A stretch of 64,000 nt of DNA from Bacteroidetes bacterium RIFCSPLOWO2_12_FULL_37_12. Its GTDB lineage: Bacteria > Bacteroidota > Bacteroidia > 2-12-FULL-37-12. Of this stretch, positions 4,317 to 51,800 are shown one piece after another; the stretch's first letter is position 1; each line of letters starts with the position of its first letter. Under the pieces are notes generated by a model that was given only the letters and a program-made list of their open reading frames with translations, did not search any database and was not told the origin of the DNA. The DNA is taken from the NCBI GenBank assembly GCA_001769655.1, contig MEPC01000020.1:217922-281921 (forward strand). Reading direction: 5' to 3'. The position numbers and the translations under genes are program-made.

Positions 4317-4467
4317 AAAAAAAAGTTCTCACGCAAAGTCGCAAAGAACGCAAAGTAAAAAATCATTAATGATTTTTTTTCTTTGCGTTCTTAATTCTTT
4401 GCGTACTTTGCGCCTTTGCGTGATATAATATTCGCGAGAAATAACACCGGTCTGAGTAGTTTTTTTG
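4317..4467. repeat. About 150-bp structured intergenic repeat (MITE-like), copy 1. It contains the long imperfect hairpin TCACGCAAAGTCGCAAAGAACGCAAAG…CTTTGCGTTCTT…CTTTGCGTGA and terminal inverted ends AACTACTC…GAGTAGTT.
   Basis: A near-identical copy lies at 51654–51800 (about 85% identity over ~145 nt). Both copies are intergenic and in the same orientation. Confidence 0.8.
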
Positions 4468-4479
4468 TGGGATTTAGTG

Positions 4480-5817
4480 TCAGTTTTTAGTTTTTAAAAA
4501 AGGTATATAAGCCACAAAGATACCAAATTTCTTATAGACCACGATTAAACACAGGATATTTGCCATTATCAAAGCAATCATATTTGATAAAGCGGCCCCA
4601 TTCATTCCCCATAAAGGGATAAGCCAGAAACTCAAAACAATGCCGAGAAAGGATGTTGCCATGATAATGTATTGAAAGATTACCTGATTGTTAGTCATCA
4701 GAAGAATCAACCCGACAGAACCGGAAATGGCACTGATAAATTGTCCGATGGAAATTAATACAAATGCAAGTGAACCGGATGTAAATTCCTTTCCATAAAG
4801 ACCCAAAATAAAACCCGGAAACAAAACAAACAGCACTAAAACTGGAGCCGAAGTAATAAAAATCATTTTGGTGGATTGTTTTGCAACGGTAGCAAATCCT
4901 TTCATATCCTGAGTAGCGAACAATTCTGAGAATTTAGGAGCAGAAATGCTGTTAACGGAAGCGAGCACTACACTACTTAAAGCTCCCAAACGTAATGCTA
5001 CATTATAAATACCCACTTCTGCATCGTCTCTGTAAATTCCAAGAATAATGGTATCGGTCCAACTTTGAATGAAACTTAAGGCGGAGGGTACCAGCATGGG
5101 AAGTGCAAGGGTTATTAAAGCGGAAGATGAAATTACAGGGTCATTAGTAACTATCTTACAACGGGGAGTTTTGTTTTCCCAATAATACCATGCTACCAAA
5201 GCAGAAAGAAAAATTGCTGAAATAAATGAATAAAAAACCAGCAAACTATTCCGGGAAAAATACCATAGCGATAAAAATAGTAATGTTGCGAACACATAAA
5301 ACAAACCTTTCTGTATAAAAGAATATGCCATAATATCTTTGCGACCTCTCAGGGATTCTGAAATAATAAAAAGCAATACATAAGGCAGGAGGCAAAAAGA
5401 AAATAATTTTATGGTATCCGCCAGATAGGGTTTAGAGAATATTTTATCAGCAATCAGTGGAGCGGAGAAATATAACAGGAACGATAATATAATATTGAAA
5501 GGAACAAGTATGCGGATAGATTTATTGAACAATGGCTTAATCAAATCATTTTTATTTTGTGCAAGGTATTGTGGGATTAATTTTAACAGAGCCATATCCA
5601 TTCCCCCTTTTCCAAGTATACTGAAAAGTGACAGTACGGCAAACCCAATCGAAAAAACGCCCACCGTTCCGGCTCCGGTAAATCGTGCCACTAACCAGAA
5701 AAAAATAAAATTCATTCCCATGCTGAGGGCTTTGACTATAAATGCCACAGTGCTCCCTTTCAGCATCTCGGAGAAATGCCGGTCGTTGCGGAATCTGGAG
5801 TAATATTTCTGAAACAT
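4480..5817 (-). CDS. wzx: Wzx-type oligosaccharide flippase (polysaccharide biosynthesis protein, MOP superfamily)
   Basis: 445 aa, about 12 TM helices, typical Wzx size and composition, placed in a polysaccharide locus. Confidence 0.7.
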   Translation of the reverse strand: MFQKYYSRFRNDRHFSEMLKGSTVAFIVKALSMGMNFIFFWLVARFTGAGTVGVFSIGFAVLSLFSILGKGGMDMALLKLIPQYLAQNKNDLIKPLFNKSIRILVPFNIILSFLLYFSAPLIADKIFSKPYLADTIKLFSFCLLPYVLLFIISESLRGRKDIMAYSFIQKGLFYVFATLLFLSLWYFSRNSLLVFYSFISAIFLSALVAWYYWENKTPRCKIVTNDPVISSSALITLALPMLVPSALSFIQSWTDTIILGIYRDDAEVGIYNVALRLGALSSVVLASVNSISAPKFSELFATQDMKGFATVAKQSTKMIFITSAPVLVLFVLFPGFILGLYGKEFTSGSLAFVLISIGQFISAISGSVGLILLMTNNQVIFQYIIMATSFLGIVLSFWLIPLWGMNGAALSNMIALIMANILCLIVVYKKFGIFVAYIPFLKTKN

Positions 5818-5862
5818 GCGGGTAAAAGTAATATTTTATTTGCTTACATCAACTATTTTATA

Positions 5863-5870
5863 TATGTTTG
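5863..5870 (+). promoter_or_regulatory. Bacteroidetes -7 promoter box TATGTTTG inside the shared 14-mer ATATATGTTTGTAT. The same 14-mer lies upstream of cysD.
   Basis: Matches the TAnnTTTG consensus of Bacteroidetes sigma-A promoters. An identical 14-mer occurs at 7887–7900 upstream of cysD. Confidence 0.45.
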
Positions 5871-7655
5871 TATTTCATCAGCGGCATCATGGATAAAATT
5901 ATTGTTTCCCTTGTCATTCTTTTTGTTGTAGTATCGCTTTACAAGGAACTATTCCGTCCGGTAGCGACTTTTGTAATTGCTATTGTTGTTCTGCTTTTAT
6001 TCAGAATTCTTTCTCCCAAAGATGTGCTTGCAGGTTTTGCCAACGAGCAGATAGCTGTTATTTTCCTTTTACTTGTGCTGAGTGATGTCATTAAGAAAAC
6101 CGGAGCGCTGGATATTTCAATGAAAAAAATTTTCAAACCCGGTCTTTCTTATCCTTCTTTTATGACAAGAATGTTCGGATCTGTTTCGTTTACTTCTGCC
6201 TGGGTAAACAACACTCCGTTAGTCGCTATCATGATTCCCCATATTTATCAATGGGCAAGGAAATGTAAAATATCGCCTTCAAAAGTTTTGTTGCCTTTGT
6301 CCTACGCGGCTATTCTCGGCGGCACGGTGACATTAGTAGGAACCTCTACCAACCTGGTGGTAAATTCATTGACCGTTGAGGCGCATCTTCCACCCTTAAA
6401 AATGTTTGATTTCACACTCATTGGAATTCCGTTAGTTATCCTCGGAGGACTTTTTTTATTAGTAGCGGGTCATAAGCTATTGCCTGAACGGCATGATTTA
6501 TTATCGGGCTTTTCTGAAAAATCAAGAGAGTACATTACGGAAACGGTTGTGCCTGCCGGTTCGCCCTTAATAGGAAAAAATATTGAAGAAGCCAACCTTC
6601 GTAATCTGAGAGGATTATTTTTGGTAGAAATCATTCGCGATGGAAGACAGATTGTTCCTGTTTCTCCCCGTGAAATAATCCGTCAGAGCGATGAATTGAT
6701 TTTTGCCGGAGAGGTGAATACAATCATTGATTTGGTGAAAGACCCTTCCATTCTTTCACTACCTCAATTTTCAAATCTTCATCCACAGGAAAACATCACC
6801 ATTGTAGATGTGGTTATTTCAACGAATTCAGTTATGAATGGAATGAGTGTGAAAAACACAAATTTCCGTGGAAAATACGATGCGGCAATTGTTGCCATCA
6901 GCAGAAACGGAGAAAAATTATCCGGAAAGATTGGAGACACATTGTTGCAGGCGGGTGATTTGTTATTGCTGGTGGTTGGCAAAGATTTTTATCAGAGAAC
7001 GGAAGGGGTGCAGGATTTTTATATTATTTCGAACGTGCGGGAACTGAATCACATTAATTCTAAAAAAGTATGGTTGATTTTATTATTTACACTCGCCGTT
7101 TTTGTATTGTCTGGTATAGGAATTATTTCCTTGTTTTTCGGATTGTTGATACTGTTAAGCATTTTTGCTTTTTTTAAATTTGTAAAATTAAAAGAAGTAA
7201 AAGAAAATTTAGACCTTCAGCTTCTTTTGATGTTGGTTTTATCGTTGGCATTGGGGAAAGCCATTGAACTATCCGGTACTGCAAATGTGTTAGCAAACAT
7301 GATGATTTCCGTCACTCAATCACTACATAGTCCTGTCATAATATTATTGGGTTTGTTTCTGATAACTCTCATACTGACTAACGTAATAACCCATGCCGCC
7401 GCCGCCGCTGTAATTTTCCCGATAGCGGTTGCCGCGGCGGTTCAACTTGGATTGGATACAAAACCATTTATTCTTGCGGTGGCTTATGCGGCATCCTGCG
7501 GTTTTATGACCCCCTTTAGCTATCAAACCAATTTAATGGTTTACGGTCCAGGCGGATATAAATTTTCAGATTACCTGCATATCGGATTCTGGATGACACT
7601 TATTTCAGTGGTGGTGTGCGTGGGCGGGTTGGGATTGGTGTATGGGTTGTTTTGA
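5868..7655 (+). CDS. DASS/SLC13-family anion permease with two central TrkA-C domains; probably a sulfate transporter. An alternative start MDKII lies at 5889.
   Basis: 595 aa with N- and C-terminal transporter halves, cytoplasmic TrkA-C-like domains in the middle, and a conserved 'TNLMVYGPGGY' end. It sits directly upstream of cysD. Confidence 0.7.
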   Translation: MYFISGIMDKIIVSLVILFVVVSLYKELFRPVATFVIAIVVLLLFRILSPKDVLAGFANEQIAVIFLLLVLSDVIKKTGALDISMKKIFKPGLSYPSFMTRMFGSVSFTSAWVNNTPLVAIMIPHIYQWARKCKISPSKVLLPLSYAAILGGTVTLVGTSTNLVVNSLTVEAHLPPLKMFDFTLIGIPLVILGGLFLLVAGHKLLPERHDLLSGFSEKSREYITETVVPAGSPLIGKNIEEANLRNLRGLFLVEIIRDGRQIVPVSPREIIRQSDELIFAGEVNTIIDLVKDPSILSLPQFSNLHPQENITIVDVVISTNSVMNGMSVKNTNFRGKYDAAIVAISRNGEKLSGKIGDTLLQAGDLLLLVVGKDFYQRTEGVQDFYIISNVRELNHINSKKVWLILLFTLAVFVLSGIGIISLFFGLLILLSIFAFFKFVKLKEVKENLDLQLLLMLVLSLALGKAIELSGTANVLANMMISVTQSLHSPVIILLGLFLITLILTNVITHAAAAAVIFPIAVAAAVQLGLDTKPFILAVAYAASCGFMTPFSYQTNLMVYGPGGYKFSDYLHIGFWMTLISVVVCVGGLGLVYGLF

Positions 7656-7748
7656 GGGGTGACATGACCATCTTAGAAGTTCTGAATATTAAAAAAAATT
7701 GTTACTAATCAGCACATAGCAACTTTTGCTCTAAAAGAACAACACTAT

Positions 7749-7783
7749 ACATATAACACTAAACAAAAAATGTTTAAGTGTTA
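7749..7783. repeat. Palindromic element TAACACTAAACA-N6-TGTTTAAGTGTTA. Positions 7749–7771 form a 23-mer that is repeated exactly, in inverted orientation, at 13644–13666.
   Basis: The 23/23-nt match ACATATAACACTAAACAAAAAAT versus its reverse complement at 13644–13666 was read directly from the sequence. Confidence 0.8.
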
Positions 7784-7889
7784 ATAGATTATTTGGGCTT
7801 TTCATTTAACATTAAATATTTTTTGTTTTATGTTATTTGTTTCTTCTTGCGGCTAATGATATCTTCTGAGCAGTTACAAAAAATTCATA

Positions 7890-7897
7890 TATGTTTG
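7890..7897 (+). promoter_or_regulatory. -7 promoter box TATGTTTG upstream of cysD, about 33 nt before the ATG
   Basis: Matches the TAnnTTTG consensus and sits within the 14-mer shared with the permease upstream region. Confidence 0.45.
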
Positions 7898-7929
7898 TAT
7901 CTTAACTAAACCCACAAAACGCAATCATC

Positions 7930-8835
7930 ATGGTATCCTACAAATTAACCCATCTCCAGGAATTAGAATCCGAATCCATCTTTATAATCCGCGAAGTAGC
8001 CGCACAATTTGAAAGACCTTGTCTTTTATTTTCAGGGGGTAAGGACTCGATTGTTATGGCATATCTGGCTTATAAAGCATTTTATCCGGCTAAAATTCCG
8101 TTCCCATTGGTGCATATTGACACAGGGCACAATTTTCCGGAGACGCTTACATACAGAGATGAATTAGTAAAACGTCTGAACGCAACGTTGCTCGTGGGAT
8201 TAGTTCAGGAGAGCATTGACAAAGGAAGAGCGACAGAAGAAAAGGGCTACAATGCGAGCCGTAATGTATTGCAAACGGTTACTTTATTAGATACCCTTGA
8301 AGCGCATAAATTTGATGCCGCTATGGGAGGAGCGAGAAGGGATGAAGAAAAAGCAAGAGCGAAAGAGCGGTTTTTTTCGCACCGCGATGAATTCGGGCAA
8401 TGGGATCCCAAAAACCAACGTCCGGAACTCTGGAATTTATTCAACGGGAAAAAGAATATCGGAGAGCATTTCCGGGTTTTTCCGTTGAGCAACTGGACGG
8501 AAATGGATATCTGGCAGTACATTGCGTTGAATCAAATTCCGATTCCTTCACTCTATTTCACTCATGAAAGAGATTGTTTTACAAGAGACAACGTGATTTA
8601 TTCTGCATCCGATTGCATGCTCAGGCGACCGGAAGAAAAAATTGAACGCAAGCAGGTGCGATTCAGAACCATAGGGGACATGACTTGCACCGGCGCTGTG
8701 ATTTCAAAAGCCAATTCTCTGGAAGATATTATTCAGGAAGTGGCGGCATCGCGTACTACAGAGAGAGGCACCCGTGCGGATGATAAGCGTTCGGAGACCG
8801 CTATGGAGGATAGAAAAAAGCAGGGGTATTTTTAA
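7930..8835 (+). CDS. cysD: Sulfate adenylyltransferase subunit 2 (CysD; PAPS-reductase-like ATP-PPase fold)
   Basis: 'SGGKDS' PP-loop, 301 aa, strong family resemblance throughout. Confidence 0.9.
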   Translation: MVSYKLTHLQELESESIFIIREVAAQFERPCLLFSGGKDSIVMAYLAYKAFYPAKIPFPLVHIDTGHNFPETLTYRDELVKRLNATLLVGLVQESIDKGRATEEKGYNASRNVLQTVTLLDTLEAHKFDAAMGGARRDEEKARAKERFFSHRDEFGQWDPKNQRPELWNLFNGKKNIGEHFRVFPLSNWTEMDIWQYIALNQIPIPSLYFTHERDCFTRDNVIYSASDCMLRRPEEKIERKQVRFRTIGDMTCTGAVISKANSLEDIIQEVAASRTTERGTRADDKRSETAMEDRKKQGYF

Positions 8836-8918
8836 GAATGAACACTCGTAAACCTGTGTCTGAGGAGTATATATAGAAAATAGAATTGCTCCTACAAATA
8901 GTAATTAACACAAAAAAC

Positions 8919-9764
8919 ATGAATAAAATGGAACAGCAATCAGCCATAAAAATTTTCGAAGAAAAAAAAGTAAGAACTCTGTGGGATGCTGAACAGGAGA
9001 AATGGTATTTATCCATAGTAGATGTGATAGCCGTTTTAACTGAAAGTCCCAATCCAAGAAAGTATTGGAGCGTTCTGAAAACACGATTAAAAGCTGAGGG
9101 AAGCCAGTTGGCTACAAATTGTAGTCAACTGAAAATGCAGTCGGCGGATGGTAAATTTTATCTTACGGATGTAGCCGACACGGAACAACTTTTCAGATTG
9201 ATTCAATCCATTCCATCGCCCAAAGCAGAGCCATTTAAACTTTGGCTTGCACAAGTTGCCTCTGAAAGATTAGATGAAATGCAAGATCCGGAACTCACTA
9301 TTGACAGAGCAATGAAAGAATATTTGCAATTGGGATATTCTGAAAGCTGGATAAATCAGCGGCTGAAAAGCATTGAAATTCGAAAAGAACTGACCGATGA
9401 ATGGAAAAAAAGAGGATTGAAAGAAGGAGTTCAGTTTGCAACGCTTACCGACATTATTACTAAGGCATGGAGTGATAGAACCACAAAAGAATATAAAATT
9501 CTGAAAGGGTTGAAGAAAGAAAATCTTAGAGATAATATGACCAACACCGAATTGATTTTAAACATGCTTGCGGAAGCATCAACCAAAGAAATTTCCTCCG
9601 TGGTTGAACCCAAGGATTTTGACACCAGTATAAAAGTGGCAAAGCAGGGTGGTGATGTCGCTAAAGTAGCAAGGAAAGAATTGGAAGCGCGGACAGGGAA
9701 AAAAGTGGTTACTTCTTTAAATGCAAAAGCTGTTTTGAGTTTGAAAGAGAGACAAGAAAAATAA
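8919..9764 (+). CDS. Bro-N domain protein (DinD / phage-antirepressor-like). The ORF extends from 8886; the likely start is MNKMEQQ at 8919.
   Basis: Bro-N-like N-terminus 'IKIFEEKKVRTLWDAEQEKWYLSIVDVIAVL', DinD-like length, inserted between cysD and cysN. Confidence 0.55.
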   Translation: MNKMEQQSAIKIFEEKKVRTLWDAEQEKWYLSIVDVIAVLTESPNPRKYWSVLKTRLKAEGSQLATNCSQLKMQSADGKFYLTDVADTEQLFRLIQSIPSPKAEPFKLWLAQVASERLDEMQDPELTIDRAMKEYLQLGYSESWINQRLKSIEIRKELTDEWKKRGLKEGVQFATLTDIITKAWSDRTTKEYKILKGLKKENLRDNMTNTELILNMLAEASTKEISSVVEPKDFDTSIKVAKQGGDVAKVARKELEARTGKKVVTSLNAKAVLSLKERQEK

Positions 9765-9787
9765 ATGAATATCGTTTTTGTTGTACT

Positions 9788-10261
9788 ATGAAACCACCCC
9801 AAAACATGAAAAAAAAATCACACCCCTACATCCCATTCCTGCTGGAAGACATAAAAGCCGCCCACCGCAGTTCTGCCGTTGCAAAATTGAACGAGCCGAA
9901 AACCATTGAAGAAGAACTGGAAGAATCGGAGCGTTTTGTTTCTGACGAACGCGAACATACGCTCAGTTATTACTGCGGATTGAAACCGGAGGACTTTCCT
10001 CCTGTAGAACAACTGTCTGATAGAGATATGCAAAAGGTATGCGAAGCGTTTAATACAATGATGGATACGTGGAATTTGTCTGTTGATTTGCCGGAGAATC
10101 TGCCGCCTTCTTTAGCATATCAACTGACGATTGGATTATTAAGTAAAGAGACCTTCATTCCCAATTGTGGGACATTGCATATTGACTTTTGCACGGGCTA
10201 TGCACCGGACTGTGAATTGAAGCAATATTGCCCCTGTCTGAAAATCTGGAACGAAAAATAA
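9788..10261 (+). CDS. Hypothetical Cys-rich protein (157 aa; motif CGTLHIDFCTGYAPDCELKQYCPC)
   Basis: The ORF is open, sits in the same operon position after the Bro-N gene, and I recognise no family for it. Confidence 0.35.
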   Translation: MKPPQNMKKKSHPYIPFLLEDIKAAHRSSAVAKLNEPKTIEEELEESERFVSDEREHTLSYYCGLKPEDFPPVEQLSDRDMQKVCEAFNTMMDTWNLSVDLPENLPPSLAYQLTIGLLSKETFIPNCGTLHIDFCTGYAPDCELKQYCPCLKIWNEK

Positions 10262-10271
10262 CCCACTCAAT

Positions 10272-11957
10272 TTACTTTCTCCTCAAAATCTTTTTTAAAA
10301 CAATCTTCTCAACCCAACTATGAAAAGGATAAATCAAAATCGCAACGCCGGCATTGAAAATTAATTTCCAGACAGGCGCTCCTCCCGTCCATTGCTCTAC
10401 ATAAGGGTCAATCAGCACAATGATAAATTCAAACCATAATAAAATGGATATGAAAATAATGGCTTCAATCAATTTCCGTCCTACATGAATTCGTACCAGT
10501 AAAATGATGGCTGTAAACAATATGACAAAAGCGATGGCAATGCCCGAATACTGAAGAATATTTCGACGGGTTTTTTCTTCCATGGAAATTCTCAATGATT
10601 CTGCTTCCACGCTTTTTTTAATGATTTCTGCTTTTTCATATTCATATTGCGTCTCCAAACGGGCTTGCTTTTTTTCATTATCCTTATTGTAAATACTATC
10701 GCGATATAAAATATAATTCTGATAATTTTCGAATGCCTGTTTGTAATAGTTGCCTCCATTCAGATTATTCAGATTCTTTTCTCCTTTTATTTTAAAAATT
10801 TCAGCGAGGTGTTGAAAGTTATCTTTGCATAGATCCTTACTGCCGATTTCTTTAGCAATGGATAAACTCTTTAAACAAAACTCTTCCGCTTTTTCCAACT
10901 CTTTTTGATTCAAATAAACTAATCCAATATTCCCATACTTATAAGAGATACTTTCTTTGTGACCGATTTCTTCTGCAATCTTCAATCCCTTGTTCAGATA
11001 TTCAAGAGCCAAGGGGTATTTTACTGTCATTGCATAATGATTATTTCCTGCTTTTACAGCGGAGTCACCTTGAAAAACAAAAACTAATCCTATACTACCC
11101 AGCAAAGTTGTGGCGCTATATTGATTTCCCATTTCTTCCGAAATTTTCAATGCTTTCAAAAAATAATTTAATGCCATTGTTAATTTACCTTGCGAAACAT
11201 AGTTCTCTCCCATATTATTAAGGATGATAGCAATTCCATAATTATTTCCGGTTTTCTCAACAAGTTCTAATGATTTGGAATAATAATTAAGGGCAAGCGG
11301 CAAATTTTCCTGCATAGTATAAACATTTCCGATATTACTGTAAATGGATGCGATCAAATCATTATCTTTCAAGACAACGGAAATTTTTAACGCCTGAAAA
11401 TAATAATCCAGCGCTTTTGGATAATTTCCCTGTTTAACCAATACCGCTCCTATGTTGCCCTGAAATCTTGCCATCTTTTGTTTGTCTCCGATTTCCTTAG
11501 ATATTTTTAATGCTTTCTGGAAGTAATTCAGCCCTTTGGTCATGTTCCCTTGCTCTATATAAATAACTCCTATATTCCCGGTTGCCGCGGCTATACCACT
11601 GTTATCAAATAACTGTTCGTAAATTTTTAATGATTGAAATTGAAAAAAAAGCGCAGAATCATAGTTACCTTTTAATCTATAGAATATTCCAAGATTGCTG
11701 TAAATATTTCCCAGCCCTATTAGCCAACGGGCTTTTAGTGCCAAAGCAAGGGCTTGCTTTCCTAATAGGATAGAAGTGTCGGGATTTTTGAACCGAAATG
11801 AAGAGCCGATTGTATTCAGTATATCTGCTTTTTCAGTATCTATACGGGAAATTTTTAATCTGGAAAAAAGGGAATCAATAGTGTCAGCGTTTGAGAAAGT
11901 TGGTAGATTAGGAGAAAATAGTATGCAGAGTAGGAAAATAATCGAATAATTTCTCAT
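10272..11957 (-). CDS. Periplasmic TPR-repeat protein with a coiled coil and the conserved C-terminal 3-TM module (FEF…DPY…GGAPVWK…P-x-H), with no kinase or output domain
   Basis: Signal peptide, more than 8 TPR-like repeats. The C-terminal ~70 aa align with the C-termini of the ORFs at 38700, 16261, 26171 and 31052. Confidence 0.75.
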   Translation of the reverse strand: MRNYSIIFLLCILFSPNLPTFSNADTIDSLFSRLKISRIDTEKADILNTIGSSFRFKNPDTSILLGKQALALALKARWLIGLGNIYSNLGIFYRLKGNYDSALFFQFQSLKIYEQLFDNSGIAAATGNIGVIYIEQGNMTKGLNYFQKALKISKEIGDKQKMARFQGNIGAVLVKQGNYPKALDYYFQALKISVVLKDNDLIASIYSNIGNVYTMQENLPLALNYYSKSLELVEKTGNNYGIAIILNNMGENYVSQGKLTMALNYFLKALKISEEMGNQYSATTLLGSIGLVFVFQGDSAVKAGNNHYAMTVKYPLALEYLNKGLKIAEEIGHKESISYKYGNIGLVYLNQKELEKAEEFCLKSLSIAKEIGSKDLCKDNFQHLAEIFKIKGEKNLNNLNGGNYYKQAFENYQNYILYRDSIYNKDNEKKQARLETQYEYEKAEIIKKSVEAESLRISMEEKTRRNILQYSGIAIAFVILFTAIILLVRIHVGRKLIEAIIFISILLWFEFIIVLIDPYVEQWTGGAPVWKLIFNAGVAILIYPFHSWVEKIVLKKILRRK

Positions 11958-12188
11958 GTACGTTCGGTTTAATTCAGGGGGTTGGTTTTTATAGGATTTC
12001 AGAGCAAAGTTATTGAAAATATATTCAAAGATTTATGTTAAAAGCATTTCGCAATAGAAAAGAAAGTTCTCTTATAAACAGATACCTGAAACTTTACTAT
12101 TTTGACAGTATGTAAGAAGTGATATTTTATCTTTAAATTTGCACGAAACAAAACTATTCCCAAGATTTAACCAAACGCAAATAAGTCC

Positions 12189-13454: not shown

Positions 13455-13558
13455 GGGAGGGGCAATTCCTTAACCATTTTTTACAGAAGTTTAGCTATAT
13501 TTGCGGTAAGGTTGTGGGAAAATATACTAAAGGTAATCAGGTTTACGAAAAAAATGAA

Positions 13559-13666
13559 TAACACATAACACTAAACACATAACATAAAACACATAACATA
13601 AAATTATAAATGTAATAGAGGTTGAGCACTTAGAAGTTTTTTATTTTTTGTTTAGTGTTATATGTT
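13559..13666. repeat. AT-rich repeat cluster. It has tandem CACATAAC(A) units and the ATAACACTAAACA motif in both orientations. The 23-mer inverted copy of the 7749–7771 element lies at 13644–13666.
   Basis: Read directly from the sequence. Confidence 0.75.
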
Positions 13667-13700
13667 TTTTTAATTCTTAAACCTGAGCGGGTATTTATAG

Positions 13701-13759
13701 AAAATAGTAAATAGAAAATAGTAAATAGAAAATAGTAAATAGAAAATAGCCCCCCCCCC
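13701..13759. repeat. 14-nt tandem repeat (GAAAATAGTAAATA × about 3.6) immediately followed by a C10 homopolymer tract
   Basis: Read directly. C10 is highly atypical in this ~36% GC sequence. Confidence 0.85.
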
Positions 13760-13862
13760 ACTCCCCATGGCTTCATCAGAAAGACGCACCGGATTTACCC
13801 AATTAGTAAAAGAACACGAGCTGTATCCGCAGGAAGCGCCAGCCATGCTAAAAACATCGAAA

Positions 13863-14996: not shown

Positions 14997-15008
14997 TTCC
15001 TCAGAACC

Positions 15009-19044: not shown

Positions 19045-19481
19045 AATGTTTTAAAGGGATGCAACGTTGCCTCCTGAATACATTCTACAAGATAAAACTC
19101 CTTTAGTTCTGGAAATGTCCGCAATTGTCGAACAAGAAAAATTGTCTCGGGTAAAATTAACGCATGATTTTTATACAATTTAAAAAAATTCTGAATTTAA
19201 AAAGAAGCGAGAAAAATCTTTGTTTCCGAGAAAGGAAATAATGTTGTACGTTCAGTAGTGATTAGTTACATATATTGTTTATTATGGAAGAATTTATTAT
19301 ATTTGTTAGGTTTTTATTTTTATAGAATTTTATTATTTAAAACACACCTATAAAAAAATTAACACGGACATCTCAATGTTGCAAACAAATAAACAATTAC
19401 ACATCATTGGAGACCAGTGACCAATCAAAAAAACGGGGTGTCCCCGAAAAACCATACGAGTAGGGCTAATATGAAAATGAC

Positions 19482-21851
19482 ATGAAAACTATAAATTTTC
19501 ACTTTTGTACCTTTTTACTGATGTTAATGAGCAACTCCTCTTTTTCTCAATGGACATCTTATAATACTTCAAACTCGGGATTAATGGATAATTACTGCTG
19601 GTACATAGCTGCTGACCCTAAGGGTGATATTTGGGTCAGCACACAATATTCAGGTGCGAACAAATTAACAGATTCAACTTGGATCAACTATACCACTTCT
19701 AACTCCAGTATTGGAGGAAATTTTGTTTGTCCTGTAAATTTTGATAAAAAAGGGAATACATGGATTGGATCAAATGGTGGAGGGCTTTCAAAATTTGATG
19801 GTTCAAATTGGACTGTATATAACACTTCTAATTCCGGTTTACCGAGTAATATTGTTTATAGAATTGAATTTGATGCAAGTGGAAATGTTTGGGTAGGGAC
19901 AAAATTGGGCGGCTTGGCAAAATTTAATGATACCGTTTGGACAGTATATAATACAAGTAATTCGGGTATGGTATCAAATGATGTTAATGCTTTAACTTTT
20001 GACAAAAATGGAAATATTTGGGTGGGTACCCGTTTTGGAGGCCTCACTAAATTTGATGGCAATAGTTCATGGACAAATTATAATACCCTTAATTCACCTA
20101 TTCCAAATGATTCTGTATATTTTCTGAAATATATTTACCAAACAGATATATTATGGGTTGGAACTGTAGGAGGATTAGCTACTTTATCAGATAGTACATG
20201 GGCTATATATACTACTACAAATTCAGGACTACCTCATAATTACATAAGGTCAATTGCTTATTCATATAACGGTGAAGCGTGGATTGCTACAGGTGGTGGT
20301 GGAGTGGCACGATTAGTAGATACAACTTGGACCGTCTATAATACGTCAAATTCAAATCTACCAAGCAATATGGTATGGTCTGTTGCTACCGATATACGGG
20401 AAAAAGTTTGGGTAGCTACCTGGGGCGGCGGCATTGCAAGTATAAATCCATTTGGCGATAGCATTACTGTAATTATTACAAGCGCTGTTGACAATCCGGG
20501 TGATACGATTGAACTCCCAGATGTAGGTGTGGTTATTAACTTTGACTCATCCAGCACAGTGCTTTCCGGAGATGATGGGGTTACAGTTACGCAGTATCTG
20601 GATGGACTGGACAGTACCCAACAACAAACTTCAAGTACAGATTCAGTGGCTACTATCTTCAACAATAGCTACTGGAACATTTTTTCATATTTAGATACGT
20701 TTAATGTTACTGTCTGTTTTAGCTTTGATTCCTCACAATTCAACACTGGTTTTCTTCAATACCTGAGCATGGTCTTTCAGGAAATTCAGGGGGATCCCTG
20801 GCAACTCATAACATCTGTTCCTACAGTTACTGATAGCACAATTTGCTTCACTACAAATCATTGGAGCAACTGGGCATTAGCCATTACAAAATCAGATTCC
20901 AAAATGCAGATTGACACAGTATTTTATAACCAAAATGTTACACCCATTATTTATACAAAAGAATTTTCACAATCCGGAATAACCTTCAAAACAAAATTAA
21001 ATGCAGGAGAAACGGATACTATTTTTGTTGCCCGTTATGATATTAATCCGGGTGGAAATGCACCTGCTGAAATTCAAAGCTATCTAAATACATTCTGGGA
21101 AATTAGAAATCAGAAAAAAGATACAACCGCATTATTTATTGATGCCACTGATATAGAAGGATTTCTTCCTGAACAAAAACAAAATTACGTAGTTTTGAAT
21201 CGTGCCGGAGTTTTTGATGATTGGAAAATCCTTCCTACACTCAGAGTAAAGAGAAATTCAAAAGAAGTTTTGTTTGTACAAAAAGATACCTTGTTTGGTC
21301 AATTTCTTATTGGTGTATCCAGCAAAGTTCAACCTTATTTTACAGATAGCATTGTATTTACTCCTGCTTGTGCCGGTGATAGTATTCTATTCTCATCAGT
21401 TATTGATGGTGGCACTCCTCCTTATACTTATTCCTGGACAGGAGACGTGGGATTAAGTGGCACAACTGAAACCTTAGGTTTTGTATATCCCAACATGGGG
21501 CAATACTCAGTTACATTAAAGGTAGAAGATACCTTTGGTGCTGAAACAGAATATATTTCAACGGTGAATATAGGTTGTACCAACCGAATGGTAGATAATG
21601 TTCCCGGAAAAAATCCTGTATTTTTTCCAAATCCAACTGAAAACGGAATCATGTATTTATCTTTTTCTGGACACGGTTCACATAATATAATAATATCTGT
21701 TTGTGACCTTTTTGGAAGGAAAGTTTATAGTCACACAACAAACCTGTTAGAAAATATCAGGATGAATTTGAGCCACCTAAATTCAGGAAGTTATATAGTT
21801 CATGTAAAAACAAAGGATAAAGAGTACAGAGAGATGGTTAGAGTGAAATGA
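19482..21851 (+). CDS. T9SS-secreted protein with N-terminal Reg_prop-like propeller repeats (NTSNSGL…GNxWxGT), a PKD-like region and a type A Por secretion C-terminal domain
   Basis: Signal peptide. At least 6 'YNTSNSG' repeats. C-terminus 'VFFPNPTENGIMYLSF…GSYIVHVKT…' is typical of the T9SS CTD (TIGR04183-like). Confidence 0.75.
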   Translation: MKTINFHFCTFLLMLMSNSSFSQWTSYNTSNSGLMDNYCWYIAADPKGDIWVSTQYSGANKLTDSTWINYTTSNSSIGGNFVCPVNFDKKGNTWIGSNGGGLSKFDGSNWTVYNTSNSGLPSNIVYRIEFDASGNVWVGTKLGGLAKFNDTVWTVYNTSNSGMVSNDVNALTFDKNGNIWVGTRFGGLTKFDGNSSWTNYNTLNSPIPNDSVYFLKYIYQTDILWVGTVGGLATLSDSTWAIYTTTNSGLPHNYIRSIAYSYNGEAWIATGGGGVARLVDTTWTVYNTSNSNLPSNMVWSVATDIREKVWVATWGGGIASINPFGDSITVIITSAVDNPGDTIELPDVGVVINFDSSSTVLSGDDGVTVTQYLDGLDSTQQQTSSTDSVATIFNNSYWNIFSYLDTFNVTVCFSFDSSQFNTGFLQYLSMVFQEIQGDPWQLITSVPTVTDSTICFTTNHWSNWALAITKSDSKMQIDTVFYNQNVTPIIYTKEFSQSGITFKTKLNAGETDTIFVARYDINPGGNAPAEIQSYLNTFWEIRNQKKDTTALFIDATDIEGFLPEQKQNYVVLNRAGVFDDWKILPTLRVKRNSKEVLFVQKDTLFGQFLIGVSSKVQPYFTDSIVFTPACAGDSILFSSVIDGGTPPYTYSWTGDVGLSGTTETLGFVYPNMGQYSVTLKVEDTFGAETEYISTVNIGCTNRMVDNVPGKNPVFFPNPTENGIMYLSFSGHGSHNIIISVCDLFGRKVYSHTTNLLENIRMNLSHLNSGSYIVHVKTKDKEYREMVRVK

Positions 21852-35766: not shown

Positions 35767-35864
35767 TCCTCTATTTTGCCACCTCTTTATTACAAAATAC
35801 TTTATATTTGCTACCTCTTTATTACAAAATAAGTTATATTTGCACCCTCTTTATTACATAAACA
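35767..35864 (+). promoter_or_regulatory. 32-bp tandem repeat (about 2.7 copies) directly abutting the AAA-ATPase start codon. Each full copy contains a TTATATTTG (-7 box-like) motif.
   Basis: Units: CCACCTCTTTATTACAAAATACTTTATATTTG / CTACCTCTTTATTACAAAATAAGTTATATTTG / CACCCTCTTTATTACATAAACAATG. Confidence 0.7.
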
Positions 35865-37214
35865 ATGAATATTAAGCGTAACGCATACCAAAAACTGTCG
35901 CAATGGAAATCATCCAAAGACAGAAAACCATTACTTATCCGTGGTGCAAGGCAAGTGGGTAAGACCACGCTGGTAAGGACATTTTCCAGGGAATTTTTCA
36001 ACTATATTGAACTTAACCTGGAGAAAAAATCAGATAAAAAACTATTTGAAATAGAAGATGTTCGTACTTTATTCAATGCCGTTTGTTTATATAAAAAAGT
36101 AAATCGTATTGATAAACCCACTCTACTCTTTATTGATGAAATTCAAGAATCGCCCACCGCTATTAAAATGCTCAGGTATTTTTATGAAGAATTACCAGAT
36201 ATTTTTGTAATTGCCGCCGGCTCTTTGCTTGAATTTGCTTTTAATAAAGTAAGTAATTTCCCAGTGGGTAGAATTGACTATTTATTCATGTCTCCACTAA
36301 ATTTTCAGGAGTATCTGGGAGCTATGGAAAATTTACAAGCCGTTGAAACCATTAATACTATCCCTGTTCCTGAACATGCCCATTCAATTTTATTAAATTT
36401 ATTTCATCAATATGCTATTATAGGTGGCATGCCCCAAATTGTTAGTAGGTATTTACAAAGCAATAACATGATAAACTTGTCTGCTGGCTATAATAAACTC
36501 TGGCAATCTTTTAAAGATGATGTAAAAAAATATGGAAAAAATGAAACGGAAAGAAAAATTATAAGACATGTAATAGAATCAGCGCCCAGCCAAAATGATA
36601 GAATAAAATTTGAGGGTTTCGGTAATTCCAATTACAGATCAAGAGAGGTAGGAGAAGCATTAAGGGCTTTGGATTTATCAAAAATAATACAGCTCATATA
36701 TCCCGGAACTATTCTTAAACCACCTATCGTAACTGATTTTAATAAGCGACCACGGTTACAGTTTTTAGATACGGGATTGTTAAATCATGCTTTACAGGTG
36801 CAAGTTGAGTTATTTACTTTAGCTGATATGGATGATTTCTATAGAGGAAAAATCATACAGCATTTAGTAACCCAGGAATTGATTTCTGTGCATGATCAGA
36901 TTGCGTATAAACCGCATTTCTGGGTCCGTCAGGAGAAGGATTCTAATTCAGAAGTTGATTTAATTTATCATTACCAAAAGTACCTGTTCCCTATAGAAAT
37001 TAAATCAGGAAGTACCGGAGCATTAAGGTCGTTACATCAGTTTGTCGAACGCACCAATCATCCTTATGCACTAAGGGTTTATTCGGGTCCTTTTCGTATT
37101 GAAAAGTCAAAGACCGCTAAAGGGATACCATACATATTAATGAACTTGCCTTACTATCTTGGAACAAAAATACCCGATTACATAAAATTTTTAATTGAAA
37201 AATATAAATTATAA
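35865..37214 (+). CDS. AAA+ ATPase of the AAA_14/DUF4143 family
   Basis: Walker A 'GARQVGKTT', Walker B 'LLFIDEIQ', about 450 aa, a typical Bacteroidetes DUF4143 ATPase. Confidence 0.75.
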   Translation: MNIKRNAYQKLSQWKSSKDRKPLLIRGARQVGKTTLVRTFSREFFNYIELNLEKKSDKKLFEIEDVRTLFNAVCLYKKVNRIDKPTLLFIDEIQESPTAIKMLRYFYEELPDIFVIAAGSLLEFAFNKVSNFPVGRIDYLFMSPLNFQEYLGAMENLQAVETINTIPVPEHAHSILLNLFHQYAIIGGMPQIVSRYLQSNNMINLSAGYNKLWQSFKDDVKKYGKNETERKIIRHVIESAPSQNDRIKFEGFGNSNYRSREVGEALRALDLSKIIQLIYPGTILKPPIVTDFNKRPRLQFLDTGLLNHALQVQVELFTLADMDDFYRGKIIQHLVTQELISVHDQIAYKPHFWVRQEKDSNSEVDLIYHYQKYLFPIEIKSGSTGALRSLHQFVERTNHPYALRVYSGPFRIEKSKTAKGIPYILMNLPYYLGTKIPDYIKFLIEKYKL

Positions 37215-40437: not shown

Positions 40438-40485
40438 CTCACCCCAGCCCCTCTCCAATAAAATGGAGAGGGGTGAGAAATTTTT
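40438..40485 (+). terminator. Rho-independent terminator: CTCACCCCAGCCCCTCTCCA-ataaaa-TGGAGAGGGGTGAG followed by AAATTTTT
   Basis: 10–14-bp GC-rich stem plus T-run immediately after the TPR gene stop. Confidence 0.7.
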
Positions 40486-40546
40486 AATTTGACGGTTATT
40501 GGGGTAATCACTCCTGACATGTTTACCAACATTTTTTTGCATACCT

Positions 40547-41362: not shown

Positions 41363-41439
41363 ATTTTTAATATAAATATTCAACATTATTACAACCGTAT
41401 TACAATTCAACAATTTAACATTTCAATTCTAAAAAAACC

Positions 41440-41751: not shown

Positions 41752-41760
41752 TAGTCCTAA

Positions 41761-42966
41761 ATGCTGAAAAACAAAAAAATATTACTTGGCGTTTGTGGAA
41801 GCATAGCCGCCTATAAATCAACCTTGTTACTGCGTGAATTAATTAAAGAAGGCGCAGAAGTAAAAGTAGTTTTTTCACCCTCTGCATCACAATTTGTCAC
41901 TCCTTTAACTTTCTCAACCTTATCTAAAAATCCGGTTTATACCGAGTTTACCGATGCAAAATCCAATGTATGGGTTAATCATGTAGAGCTGGGTTTATGG
42001 GCTGATTATTTCTTGATAGCTCCTGCTACAGCGCGTACTATTTCTAATTTTTCCCACGGAAATTGCGATTCATTATTGTGCGCAGTGTTTCTTTCAGCTC
42101 GGTGTAAAGTGGCATTAGCGCCCGCCATGGACGCTGATATGTTCAACCATTTTTCTACGCAAAAAAACCTGCAATCTCTCAGGGAGCAAGGGATAACGAT
42201 TATACCTCCTGGAACCGGAGAACTTGCGAGTGGATTGACCGGCGAAGGCAGAATGGCTGAACCGGAAGAATTATTGAAATTTTTACAAAACGAGTTCCGC
42301 AAAAGTCCTCTATCAAAAAAAAAAGTTCTGATTACCGCAGGTCCCACTCATGAAGCAATAGATCCAGTTCGTTATCTGGGAAATAATTCAACCGGAACTA
42401 TGGGTTACCGGTTAGCGGAAGTTTTTGCCCGACGAAATTCGAGCGTCACTCTCATAAGCGGACCTGTGTCATTAGAAAAACCAAACGGTAATATCCGATG
42501 CCTGAATGTTGTTTCGGCAGAGGAAATGAAAAATGCTTGTCTTCGTGAATTTCCGGAACAAGACATTGTAATCATGTCAGCGGCGGTAGCTGATTTTAAA
42601 CCTGCTCATTATTCTTCCAATAAAATCAAAAAAAACGAATCGGAAACATTACAACTCACGTTAGTTAAAAATCCGGATATTTTGGCTGAACTAGGCGAAA
42701 AGAAAAAGAAAAATCAGATACTCATAGGTTTCGCGCTTGAATCCGGGAAAAATATTTCTTACGCAAAAGAAAAGTTGAAAAGAAAAAAACTCGATATGCT
42801 TGTTTATAATACCCTGGATGATAAAGGATCCGGATTCGGTAAGTCAACCAATAAAATTACGTTGTTGTTTCCCGATGGGAAGGAAAAATTGTTTCCGTTA
42901 AAGAAAAAAGCTGAAGTGGCGGAGGATATTGCAGATGAGGTGGAGGGGATGGTTAGAAACACTTAA
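41761..42966 (+). CDS. coaBC: Bifunctional phosphopantothenoylcysteine decarboxylase / phosphopantothenate–cysteine ligase
   Basis: N-terminal flavoprotein 'KKILLGVCGSIAAYKSTLLLREL', C-terminal CoaB domain, 401 aa. Confidence 0.9.
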   Translation: MLKNKKILLGVCGSIAAYKSTLLLRELIKEGAEVKVVFSPSASQFVTPLTFSTLSKNPVYTEFTDAKSNVWVNHVELGLWADYFLIAPATARTISNFSHGNCDSLLCAVFLSARCKVALAPAMDADMFNHFSTQKNLQSLREQGITIIPPGTGELASGLTGEGRMAEPEELLKFLQNEFRKSPLSKKKVLITAGPTHEAIDPVRYLGNNSTGTMGYRLAEVFARRNSSVTLISGPVSLEKPNGNIRCLNVVSAEEMKNACLREFPEQDIVIMSAAVADFKPAHYSSNKIKKNESETLQLTLVKNPDILAELGEKKKKNQILIGFALESGKNISYAKEKLKRKKLDMLVYNTLDDKGSGFGKSTNKITLLFPDGKEKLFPLKKKAEVAEDIADEVEGMVRNT

Positions 42967-43010
42967 ACATTTTTTATTAAGTGTTTTATGTTAAGTGTTA
43001 TTCTTTCAGA
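42967..43010. repeat. Palindromic element AACACTTAAACA-ttttttat-TAAGTGTT, a relative of the 7749/13644 motif. It may act as a weak terminator after coaBC.
   Basis: Read from the sequence. Confidence 0.5.
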
Positions 43011-43033
43011 GAAAAAATAGTTGTGTTAAATAG

Positions 43034-44080: not shown

Positions 44081-44092
44081 GGGATTGGGTTA

Positions 44093-46798: not shown

Positions 46799-46842
46799 AT
46801 TAGTTGCAAATGTCTAATAAAAATGACTAAAAAACAATTAAA

Positions 46843-46879
46843 CCGTGTAGAGACGGGTTTTAAACCCGTCTCTACACGG
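46843..46879 (-). terminator. Perfect 18-bp-stem palindrome CCGTGTAGAGACGGGTTT-ta-AAACCCGTCTCTACACGG. It overlaps the WbaP stop and is followed on the minus strand by TTTAATTGTTTTT. It is a probable intra-operon terminator or attenuator.
   Basis: Read from the sequence. It shares the GTAGAGAC/GTCTCTAC core with the 16183–16210 element. Confidence 0.6.
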
Positions 46880-48263: not shown

Positions 48264-48293
48264 TAGGATTTCAGGTTTGGATAAAAATTATCG

Positions 48294-49481: not shown

Positions 49482-50772
49482 AGTTATCTGAGGTTATCCG
49501 GTGAGGGTCAACTCTGACCAGATCAATAATAGTTTGGGTGGGTTTAATTAAATGGAGTGCCTTGGAAAATTCAGGAGATTTATTTCCAATAAGAATAATA
49601 TCAGAACCCTTAATCACATCTTCCATTTTTTTAAGTATGTGTTTAGAAATATGCGGGATACGTTGTTCTATAAATTCTTTATTTTTTCCTAGAAGTTTTG
49701 CTAAAAATACATTATTATCATAAATCCGGACCTTGTAATTTTTTCCAATCAGCATTTCGATGAGTGTTACCATCGGGCTTTCACGTAAATCATCGGTTCC
49801 TGCTTTAAAAGCAAAGCCAAGCACACCGATTTTTTTCTTACCCGTATTGTAAATCAACCGTAATGCTCTCTGGATATGGTATTCATTGCTATCAAGCAGT
49901 GAACTAAGCATTGGGATTTTCAGATCCAGATGATGGGCTTTATAAGTCAAAGCTCTTACATCTTTAGGAAGGCAGGAGCCACCGAAAGCAAAACCCGGTT
50001 TTAAATAATAAGGCGACAGATTGAGTTTCTTATCCTGAGCAACAATTTCCATTACCCGGTGGCTGTCTATCCCCAGCTCTTTGCAGATATTTCCTATTTC
50101 ATTGGCAAAAACGATCTTGGTTGCATGGAAATTATTATTTGCGTACTTAATCATTTCGGCTTCTTCAGGAGTTAGGCAGAAAATCGGGGAGGAAATCTGA
50201 CGGTATAATTTCTTTAATTCGATTTCACTTTTCCTGCAAGTAGCGCCAATAATGGTGTAAGGTGGTTCATAAAAATCTTTGACGGCAGTCCCCTCTCTTA
50301 AAAATTCAGGATTGGAAGCCATTCCGAATTCATGTGTCGGTCTTTTACCGGATGATTCTTCTATTAGTTTGACACAGTGCCTGATGGTTCCGGGAGAAAC
50401 CGTACTACGGATTACTATTGTATGAAAAGTTTTTTTTGCCTTCAGAGCAACTCCAATTTTAATGCAAACCTTGTGAATGTAAGATAAATCTATGTCGCCG
50501 TTTGCTAAGCTGGGTGTTCCGACACAGACAATGGAGATGTCAGAGTTTAAAATGGCTGAAATTTCATCGGTAGTGGCTAAAAGTTTTTTTGTTTTTATCC
50601 CTTTTTTTATCAATTCTTCCAAACCCTCTTCAATGATAGGTGATTTACCTTTATTAATAAGTTTTACTTTTTGAGGGGAAATATCAACCCCAATAACTCT
50701 ATTTCCATTATTGGCGAAACATGCGCTTGATACTGCTCCCACATAGCCGAGTCCGAAAATGCTTATATTCAT
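49462..50772 (-). CDS. Nucleotide-sugar 6-dehydrogenase (GDP-mannose 6-DH / UDP-GlcNAc 6-DH, WbpA-like)
   Basis: 'MNISIFGLGYVGAVSSACFA' Rossmann fold. At 436 aa the size and N-terminus are very close to AlgD/WbpA. Confidence 0.8.
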   Translation of the reverse strand: MNISIFGLGYVGAVSSACFANNGNRVIGVDISPQKVKLINKGKSPIIEEGLEELIKKGIKTKKLLATTDEISAILNSDISIVCVGTPSLANGDIDLSYIHKVCIKIGVALKAKKTFHTIVIRSTVSPGTIRHCVKLIEESSGKRPTHEFGMASNPEFLREGTAVKDFYEPPYTIIGATCRKSEIELKKLYRQISSPIFCLTPEEAEMIKYANNNFHATKIVFANEIGNICKELGIDSHRVMEIVAQDKKLNLSPYYLKPGFAFGGSCLPKDVRALTYKAHHLDLKIPMLSSLLDSNEYHIQRALRLIYNTGKKKIGVLGFAFKAGTDDLRESPMVTLIEMLIGKNYKVRIYDNNVFLAKLLGKNKEFIEQRIPHISKHILKKMEDVIKGSDIILIGNKSPEFSKALHLIKPTQTIIDLVRVDPHRITSDNYVGICW

Positions 50773-50869
50773 GCGGTATTTTTAAAGGGCAAATATCAAT
50801 GAAATATTTTGAATTACCTATTTTATCCTATACCCTATACCACAAAACGGAAAACACATAGGTTAGCCA

Positions 50870-51604
50870 CTACAAATACCCATTTGCCAGCACATCTGCA
50901 ATGTGCAGTACCTTAAGATTCAAATTGTTTTTCTGGATGTACCCATTCAAGTGCATCAGGCAGGAAAGATCTGAGGATATTAAATATTCCGCTTGTGTAT
51001 CGAGGGCATGTTGAATTTTTTGTTCCCCCATTGCCACTGAGATTGGCTCAAACTTGACAGCAAACGTACCCCCAAATCCGCAACAGGTTTCGGTATCTTT
51101 CATTTCGATGAGCGTTAAACCTTTTACATGAGCAAGGAGTTTTCGGGGCGCTGATTTAATTCCACACTCCCGCAAAGCACTACAGGAATCGTGATACGTG
51201 GCCGTGCCATTAAATGTAGCGCCGACATCAGTGACACCAAGCACATCGGTTAGAAATTCTGTAAACTCAAATAGATTTCTCTGGATTTGCTTGCAGGGGT
51301 TATAAAGCGAAGAATGTTGGAATAATTCATTGTAATAATTCCGAACCATTCCGGTACAAGATGCGCTCGGACAAACAATGTAGTTATCATTTGGAAAATC
51401 ACGGATAAATTTGGATGCCACTTCAAAAGCATCGTTCCAATGACCTGCATTAAAAGCAGTTTGACCGCAACAGGTTTGAGCAGGGTTGTAGTTTACTTTA
51501 CAACCCAATTTCTCCAGTACTTTCACCATATTGAATCCTGTTTCAGGATATATCTGGTCAATAAAGCAGGGGATGAAGAGGTCAACTTTGGTTTTGTCTG
51601 GCAT
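50870..51604 (-). CDS. (Fe-S)-binding CCG-domain protein (LutA / glycolate oxidase Fe-S subunit-like)
   Basis: Cysteine-rich 'FIPCFIDQ…CCGQ' and 'CPSASC…CCGFGG' CCG motifs, 244 aa. Confidence 0.65.
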   Translation of the reverse strand: MPDKTKVDLFIPCFIDQIYPETGFNMVKVLEKLGCKVNYNPAQTCCGQTAFNAGHWNDAFEVASKFIRDFPNDNYIVCPSASCTGMVRNYYNELFQHSSLYNPCKQIQRNLFEFTEFLTDVLGVTDVGATFNGTATYHDSCSALRECGIKSAPRKLLAHVKGLTLIEMKDTETCCGFGGTFAVKFEPISVAMGEQKIQHALDTQAEYLISSDLSCLMHLNGYIQKNNLNLKVLHIADVLANGYL

Positions 51605-51653
51605 TTATTAGAAATAAATTTAAAAAGAAAAAGTTTTGTAACTATTCAGCATG

Positions 51654-51800
51654 AAAAAAGTTCTCACGCAAAGTCGCGAAGAACGCAAAGAAAAAAGTCA
51701 GTAATGATTTTTTTTCTCTGCGTACTTAATACTTTGCGTACTTTGCGACTTTGCGTGACATAATAATTGCGAAAAAGAATACTCGCCTGAGTTTTTATAA
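51654..51800. repeat. About 150-bp structured intergenic repeat (MITE-like), copy 2 (see 4317–4467)
   Basis: About 85% identical to copy 1 and in the same orientation. Confidence 0.8.

Follow-up and report, generated by a model that had tools for sequence, protein, structure and literature searches.

The window analysed here is a 64,000-nt stretch of contig MEPC01000020.1 from Bacteroidetes bacterium RIFCSPLOWO2_12_FULL_37_12, with coordinates given on the forward strand, and it contains two similar repeats, copy A (4302-4463) and copy B (51638-51798). Each of them very probably represents a single inserted copy of a non-autonomous DNA transposon, ~160 bp long, that belongs to, or is mobilised by, the single-open-reading-frame (single-ORF) ISBst12 group of the IS66 family of insertion sequences (IS). 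[quoted passage not shown] The two copies are independent insertions, that is, ordinary mobile DNA.

Exactly two copies of this element, hereafter type 1, were found in the window, both in the same orientation, and no third copy was found there. The initial annotation had reported two co-oriented, MITE-like repeats of ~150 bp at 4317-4467 and 51654-51800. The repeats are real and the element measures ~160 bp, the left terminal repeat having been missed. Identity, reported as ~85%, was 83% when the full MAFFT-aligned element was compared and 88% within the 139-nt core that aligns without gaps. The terminal inverted ends that had been pointed out (AACTACTC...GAGTAGTT) are real and belong to a TIR of 12-15 nt; copy A retains it almost complete, whereas in B the right-hand one is degenerate. 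The only ORFs within the elements are repetitive, low-complexity read-throughs of the hairpin (50-107 aa), which we judged to be spurious.

The boundaries of the element were fixed by six further copies together with target-site duplications. These copies came from a metagenome scan with a pattern composed of the right hairpin arm and the start of the tail following it, which returned 16 loci (L-numbers denote loci or contigs fetched from public collections). Eight of the 16 were low-GC JGI contigs with full-length copies and represented six independent sites: L146, L147, L148, L149, L150 (=L151), and L156 (=L159). Together with A and B, the six JGI metagenome copies formed the eight-copy set used for profile and alignment. 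They define a unit of ~160 bp (159-167 bp) with TIRs GTAACTAYTCAGCAT, and all copies, A and B included, are 80-92% identical among themselves. Similarity ends sharply at GTAACTACTCAGCAT on the left and at CTGAGTAGTTAC on the right, and outside the element the six additional loci share nothing with the window. TIRs are recognisable in all eight independent copies, with a degenerate right TIR in L146 as in B.

Target-site duplications of 8 bp, matching at seven or eight positions, flank five of the eight copies. They are perfect at B, at L149 (GATTATTT), and, by eye, at L146 (GATTTTCT), and match at 7/8 positions at both L150 and L147. The check for such duplications suggested in the initial annotation thus gave a perfect 8-bp duplication at B and none at A. 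In addition, an empty site was found for B in L162 (Logan SRR22387933), a species-level relative whose LutA-like protein is 93% identical: the genes flanking B, for a major facilitator superfamily (MFS) transporter and the LutA-like protein, abut in this contig and the element between them is absent. TIRs, 8-bp duplications, copies at unrelated loci and the empty site at B together bear out the MITE-like character first noted. Copy number was two in the ~73 kb of sequence that covered the source lineage and three on a single 318-kb JGI contig (strict pattern), with further copies on sister contigs of the latter. When copy B was searched with blastn against plasmids (PLSDB) and phages (GenBank), only matches of 24-33 nt, at chance level, were obtained.

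Ends beginning with GTAA and 8-bp duplications point to the IS66 family. The ends of the window elements match the TIRs read from 11 autonomous ISs, which encode PF03050 / NF033517 or tblastn-homologous transposases, as well as the published TIRs of ISDge4, a single-ORF member of the ISBst12 group of the IS66 family with the ends 5'-GTGACTACTCAGCA / 5'-GTAACTGCTCAGCA and an 8-bp direct repeat (PMC12898284). GTAAGCG or GTAACCG is the start of the classical IS66 members, which have three ORFs (PMC12888890). An IS on the Geobacillus plasmid pHTA426 (14107-15741, 1,635 bp) has the TIRs GTATCTATTCAGCCC / GTAACTATTCAGCCC and the duplication GACGAGTT, and its 485-aa transposase matches PF03050 with E = 1.9e-64 and NF033517 with 333.7 bits (cut-off 180); the first 13 nt of the left TIR of B are those of one of its TIRs. 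The IS of B. thuringiensis p142098 carries GTAACTACTCAGCT at both ends and a 7/8 duplication. Among the IMG/VR loci with relatives of these transposases, 9 of 12 showed GTAACTAYTCAG at both ends, 1.6-1.9 kb apart, and perfect 8-bp duplications were present at eight of these nine ISs. Sharing both its ends and its duplication length with autonomous ISBst12-like ISs, the element therefore carries the signature ends of the group. The ISs examined belonged to Bacillota, Deinococcota and Cyanobacteriota or lay on IMG/VR viral contigs; none was from this Bacteroidota lineage. Like ISBst12, ISDge4, the ISGka4-family IS of pHTA426 and the p142098 IS, the window elements have the TIR core GTAACTAYTCAG(C) and 8-bp duplications; in contrast to these ISs of 1.6-1.9 kb, with a DDE_Tnp_IS66 transposase of 450-490 aa, they are non-coding, 160 bp long and without similarity to the interior of the group's members.

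A DDE transposase of the ISBst12 group, encoded elsewhere in the genome, would bind both ends of the element in trans, and insertion would proceed via an 8-bp staggered cut followed by repair. Two more MITE types bear on the origin of the elements: type 2 (177 bp), located in the window, and a third type of 112 bp in L156. Read on the strand on which the T-run follows the hairpin, all three types have a common layout of TIR, short tail, long hairpin, T7-8, and TIR, and in the group's autonomous ISs, too, a hairpin lies between the right end and the stop codon of the transposase gene. The shared layout suggests that the MITEs could be internal-deletion derivatives, which would have kept the left end and leader of an IS as well as its transposase terminator and right end. 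In being small, non-coding and intergenic, with TIRs and target-site duplications, they are similar to classical bacterial MITEs (Correia/NEMIS, ERIC, RUP, Nezha, and BrickBuilt and MITEPgRS of P. gingivalis), which have strong hairpins and can affect neighbouring transcripts (PMC3733652; PMC4596501). Unlike the window elements, those MITEs derive from IS families other than IS66/ISBst12, and BrickBuilt has IS5-type TIRs (GAGACCTTTGCA) and direct tandem repeats of 23 nt, whereas here units of 8-9 nt form two hairpin arms.

Folding of 146-nt segments gave a minimum free energy of -44.5 to -51.6 kcal/mol (z = -6.0 to -7.6) on either strand, and none of 200 shuffled sequences folded as stably, again on either strand, which substantiates the long imperfect hairpin of the initial annotation. 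The hairpin is not a simple palindrome. Its left arm consists of three 7-nt CGCAAAG units separated by spacers of 1 nt and 2 nt, its right arm of four CTTTGCG-type units, one of which is degenerate (CTTAATT in A), and its tip of a small A6/T8 hairpin. The arm motif occurs four times in the window, compared with 0.45 expected occurrences. On the plus strand, the hairpin is followed by a tail of 28-30 nt, whose mini-hairpin has the form GTG..TAC in three of the other copies. After the hairpin of A come, on the minus strand, GAGAAC and T8 (4317-4324); read as RNA, this strand has GAGAA as the end of the stem and then C plus U8 (A) or U6 (B), and the corresponding A7-8 run is kept in 8/8 copies.

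All four neighbouring genes have the minus strand as their sense strand, and the element begins 7 nt (B) or 17 nt (A) after the upstream stop codon. A stable stem directly followed by a U-tract, the hallmark of an intrinsic terminator, is present in the sequence on the transcribed strand. We predict a terminator role for the element: the minus-strand hairpin with U6-8 would serve as an intrinsic terminator for the flippase or MFS gene that ends 7-17 nt upstream. A terminator scanner flagged a sub-hairpin of B with its T-run; A, with a stem and loop above the limits of the scanner, was not flagged. Terminator-like orientation was found in five of seven insertions between tandem genes.

With the TGA before it, the tail of A forms TGATATAAT, a sequence similar to an extended -10 box. 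This TGnTATAAT-like box, located after the right arm, is directed antisense into the upstream gene and probably has no relevance in this phylum. A sigma-70 promoter scan gave nothing convincing, and no Bacteroidetes-type TAnnTTTG motif was seen by eye on either strand. Resemblances to sigma-54 and extracytoplasmic function (ECF) promoters, attC sites and IS5 TIRs, all noticed by eye, were dropped as their spacing or order did not fit.

Several points weigh against the reading of the repeats as ISBst12-group MITEs or qualify parts of it. Copy A lacks a target-site duplication (2/8); this would fit an old MITE x MITE rearrangement, and a boundary indel would explain it equally well. Base-for-base alignment of the empty site in L162 is not possible, as ~65 nt of spacer are missing as well. 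Identity among the copies is 80-92%, and nothing indicates recent activity. A tblastn search with the pHTA426 transposase gave no match in the window and 167 loci (~1.5 Mb, mostly of unrelated genomes), a weak search given that the source lineage is represented by those ~73 kb only; with no IS66-family transposase matched, a cognate autonomous element in the lineage is unproven. Where TIRs were paired at a spacing of 1.2-2.5 kb, in the window or in related loci, the pairing was due to chance and duplications were absent. In addition, we infer the deletion-derivative origin from layout alone, and the conservation of the right arm and tail is in part an ascertainment effect of the scan pattern. 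Finally, the opposite orientation is seen in two of the seven tandem-gene insertions, and two copies are placed in spacers between divergent genes. As a consequence of this mixed orientation and placement, any terminator role would be a side effect of the element and not a requirement.

Table 1. Type-1 MITEs and related features in the 64,000-nt window (E values are from an nhmmer search with the eight-copy profile).
Feature	Position	Strand	Details
MITE copy A, type 1	4302..4463	+	162 bp; E = 3.3e-50, full length
Copy A, layout	4302..4463	+	TIR, A8, 97-nt hairpin, 28-nt tail, TIR
Left TIR of A	4302..4316	+	GCAACTACTCGGCAT, 2 mismatches to consensus GTAACTACTCAGCAT
Inner hairpin of A	4327..4423		left arm TCACGCAAAG-T-CGCAAAG-AA-CGCAAAG
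Tail of A	4424..4451	+	TATAATATTCGCGAGAAATAACACCGGT; mini-hairpin GCG..CGC
Right TIR of A	4452..4463	-	CTGAGTAGTTTT; consensus CTGAGTAGTTAC
MITE copy B, type 1	51638..51798	+	161 bp; E = 1.2e-49, full length
Target-site duplication of B, left	51630..51637		AAAGTTTT, 8/8
Left TIR of B	51638..51652	+	GTAACTATTCAGCAT
Inner hairpin of B	51662..51759		on the minus strand followed by GAGAAC + T6
Right TIR of B	51787..51798	-	degenerate, CTGAGTTTTTAT, 9/12 to consensus
Target-site duplication of B, right	51799..51806		AAAGTTTT; overlaps last two bases of MFS stop codon (51805-51807)
Type-2 MITE	7701..7877	+	177 bp; TIRs GTTACTAATCAG / CTGAGCAGTTAC, as type 1
Decayed hairpin related to type 2	13557..13669		AACACATAACATAA units; flanking ends weakly TIR-like
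Type-2 fragment, left half	42958..43026	-	83% complementary to 7714-7782

Both copies are intergenic, as initially annotated. Copy A is located between genes for a Polysacc_synt flippase (4480-5817, minus strand) and a hexapeptide acetyltransferase (3668-4249, minus strand), and copy B between genes for an MFS/ATG22 transporter (51805-53127, minus strand) and a CCG-domain LutA/LldE-like protein (50870-51604, minus strand); exopolysaccharide (EPS) loci adjoin both. The nearest named relatives of the source lineage are Chitinophagaceae, with ~70% protein identity. Copy A is identical in five public assemblies, and copy B is present in L121-L124 and L127. Five short-read contigs from Logan and ENA end inside the MITE, three of them starting 128 nt upstream of the LutA-like gene (L125, L126, and L128) and two starting 95-97 nt upstream of the acetyltransferase gene (L164 and L165). 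Either repetition or the palindrome could cause these breaks. Because assemblies break repeatedly in the hairpin, the elements are under-represented in metagenome-assembled genomes (MAGs) of the lineage.

The type-2 MITE is flanked by a perfect 8-bp duplication (AAAAAATT, 7693-7700 and 7878-7885) and also occurs in three population assemblies (L209-L211). Its internal hairpin, made of AACAC/ATAAC units, is unlike that of type 1. The type-2 fragment listed in Table 1 lies in a convergent intergenic spacer and overlaps the ends of two genes. Near the type-2 MITE and beside a PAPS reductase, L163 486-1331 (corresponding to ~8886-9764 of the window) encodes a protein with a Bro-N domain, of a type usual in phage or mobile DNA; this site differs in the population variants L210 and L211, which encode 278 aa or a protein split into 209 + 70 aa.

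The arm motif of type 1 is also found far beyond this lineage. Hairpins and single arms with the three-unit sequence TCTCnCGCAAAGnCGCAAAGnnCGCAAAG recur in other phyla and viral contigs (L001-L120, L129-L145, and L199-L205). A loose three-unit pattern matched at least 120 IMG/VR contigs, compared with 31 for a reversed-sequence control in which 9-nt coding repeats predominated, and a strict 25-base pattern including the TCTC base matched 25 contigs compared with none for the control. Scanning a genome collection with a 23-base left-arm pattern returned 17 MAG loci (locus GC 0.29-0.62; ~0.02 expected by chance) from other phyla, labelled Acidobacteriota, Verrucomicrobiota, Planctomycetota, Desulfobacterota and Calditrichia, and from Flavobacteriaceae (Bacteroidota), so that at least six phylum-level groups are represented; the source species was not among the matches. 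Complete hairpins numbered 89 among the matches listed. Their consensus consists of an A-rich 8-mer, nTCTCn, CGCAAAG n CGCAAAG nn CGCAAAG, and AAAA, with unrelated loops, and this layout resembles a bidirectional terminator.

These matches make it possible, if only tentatively so, that the unit under selection is the inner hairpin itself, a mobile or convergently maintained class of intrinsic terminator in many phyla for which IS66-type ends are one vehicle. Such an explanation is compatible with, and not exclusive of, the MITE explanation. It would account for the occurrence of the three-unit arm and the A-tract/stem/T-tract layout without TIRs in other phyla and viral contigs, where IS66-type TIRs at the hairpins were not enriched over control positions, and for the long hairpin beside a T-run in all three local MITE types. 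However, the terminators are predicted ones only, arm orientation showed no bias relative to genes (using crude ORF-based gene calls, which are noisy in high-GC contigs), and many single arms have no partner. Sequence-conserved intrinsic terminators in multiple copies are known from the inverted pairs of DNA uptake sequences (DUS) in Neisseria and from mycobacterial TRITs. The arm motif is similar to these in its conserved stem at many intergenic sites followed by a T-run. To our knowledge, terminators of the DUS/TRIT type are confined to one genus or family, whereas the CGCAAAG arm motif, known here from sequence alone, extends across several phyla.

Going one step further, the inner hairpin might represent an undescribed class of intergenic palindromes in multiple phyla and in viral contigs, with arms formed by a fixed 24-nt array of three CGCNAAG units, a TCTCN base ahead of the array and flanking A/T tracts; we consider this rather unlikely. 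Its forms would comprise inverted pairs of 40-250 nt, co-oriented single arms and nests with CACAGAG units. A literal search for the arm sequences in ~8 million papers found no match, and a keyword search for repeat families returned only REP and MITE background. If the class is real, conservation over such distances would imply a shared trans-acting partner or a selfish element of very broad host range, and the IS66-type MITE of the window would be only one of its carriers.

Three of the contigs with arm motifs showed particular arrangements. In L101 (IMG/VR 3300025584_000367), a 12-kb phage contig, ten co-oriented single arms are spread over positions 150-11107, several of them with 9-42 nt between their end and the ATG of a small ORF on the plus strand, a position suggestive of a promoter or leader role in this contig. 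The 5.4-kb viral contig L048 contains three repeats (633-796, 1729-1810, and 5214-5344) in which a CACAGAG-unit hairpin is nested in the loop of a CGCAAAG-unit hairpin. In the 5.2-kb metagenome contig L161 (676-4776), hairpins of this class that share a conserved loop (ATCATCATAGAC...) separate three paralogous ORFs of ~180 aa, arranged in tandem, that resemble, by eye, DNA-binding proteins of the ORF6N/KilA-N type.

The initial annotation had also considered a structured small RNA family, and we regard it as improbable that the repeats are small or cis-regulatory RNAs conserved for their fold rather than transposed. The fold is very stable on both strands and the hairpin is kept in 8/8 copies, yet no Rfam family was matched at the gathering score by the 17 loci of other phyla, nor was any relevant match found in the window. 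Even at E<10, both copies matched only miRNA-precursor models, with at best 27-28 bits against cut-offs of 72-90. Covariation was detected by RNAalifold in only 2/45 pairs. One compensatory pair in the tail mini-hairpin is CG in four copies and UA in three, and since the three copies with UA are more closely related to one another than to the rest, it probably reflects a single event. A conserved fold with almost no covariation is expected for young paralogous DNA copies. Moreover, orientation and gene context are not fixed, with both orientations and divergent spacers represented, and TIRs and duplications account for the spread of the element without an RNA function.

Direct repeats on either side of ~47 kb had, in addition, been proposed to be recombination sites that bound accessory content and mediate its deletion or amplification. 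We reject such a border role, be it as ends of a composite transposon or island or as deletion/amplification sites, as very improbable. The same orientation of the copies, the adjoining EPS loci and the absence of a duplication at A, as expected after MITE x MITE recombination, would fit it. In contrast, B has its own perfect 8-bp duplication and is therefore a simple independent insertion, and the outer flanks, left of A and right of B, match at only 3/8 positions, so that the pair is not a composite transposon. The longest run identical between A and B is 24 nt, which makes them a poor substrate for homologous recombination. GC content is uniform across the window, and the interval itself contains a MITE with the same ends and remnants (7701-7877, 13557-13669, and 42958-43026). 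We also examined public contigs (14 with the LutA-like gene, five with the acetyltransferase gene and 12 with the next gene), several of which end inside the element. Those that span it keep the same neighbours and contain no A x B deletion junction, and an independent 157-kb assembly has the same spacing of 47.3 kb.

That the elements are repetitive extragenic palindromic (REP/REPIN) sequences moved by a RAYT (an IS200-like tyrosine transposase), or integron attC sites, is hardly credible. Similar to REPs, they are multi-copy intergenic palindromes of which singlets and inverted doublets both occur, the inner arm motif being found elsewhere as singletons and inverted pairs, and in some contigs hairpins lie between successive short genes as well. 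REPs are not known to leave a target-site duplication, and neither RAYT/IS200-type transposition nor attC recombination is known to produce one of 8 bp, in contrast to the 8-bp duplications and IS66-type TIRs seen here; the duplications likewise argue against site-specific recombination. The R''/R' boxes of attC sites read RYYYAAC / GTTRRRY, to which the hairpin base TCTCAC / GTGA(Y)A is, by eye, unfit. REP superfamilies are characterised by GTAG or CGTC tags, stems of 8-9 bp and loops of 4-5 nt (PMC3733652), whereas the window elements have neither tag and, with stems of ~30 bp, a different geometry.

Other features of the window were recorded along with the repeats. At 19402-19470 (plus strand), a full-length DUF805 RNA motif (RF03081; 69.9 bits, gathering score 51.1) lies 12 nt upstream of a 789-aa ORF (19482-21851). 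A perfect 14-nt tandem repeat (ATAGAAAATAGTAA x 3.8) at 13697-13749 is followed by ten C residues at 13751-13760, just upstream of an ORF starting at 13767, and this tract (13697-13760) could be prone to slippage. Another tandem repeat, with 2.6 copies of 32 nt and 90% matches, occupies the spacer (35775-35858) before an ORF at 35865. For the protein encoded at the right edge of the window (63044-63973), a look-up returned no record. Two paralogous pairs, 26171-28849/31052-33778 and 30082-30731/34774-35423 (direct repeats D1, D2, D5, and D9), are 73-81% identical with a spacing of ~4.7-4.9 kb, which indicates a duplicated two-gene module inside the interval between A and B.

The type-1 elements are a true MITE family from a known IS group, here found in an uncultured lineage of Bacteroidota. 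With this, repeats of the lineage gain a named and testable identity, that of an ISBst12-group MITE with 8-bp duplications, and the 47-kb interval between them is no longer suggested to be a bounded mobile unit. Because the repeats lie inside polysaccharide gene clusters, their hairpin and T-run could terminate or attenuate transcription between genes, and the arm motif they carry may reveal either a new kind of selfish element or a terminator module that is widely shared.

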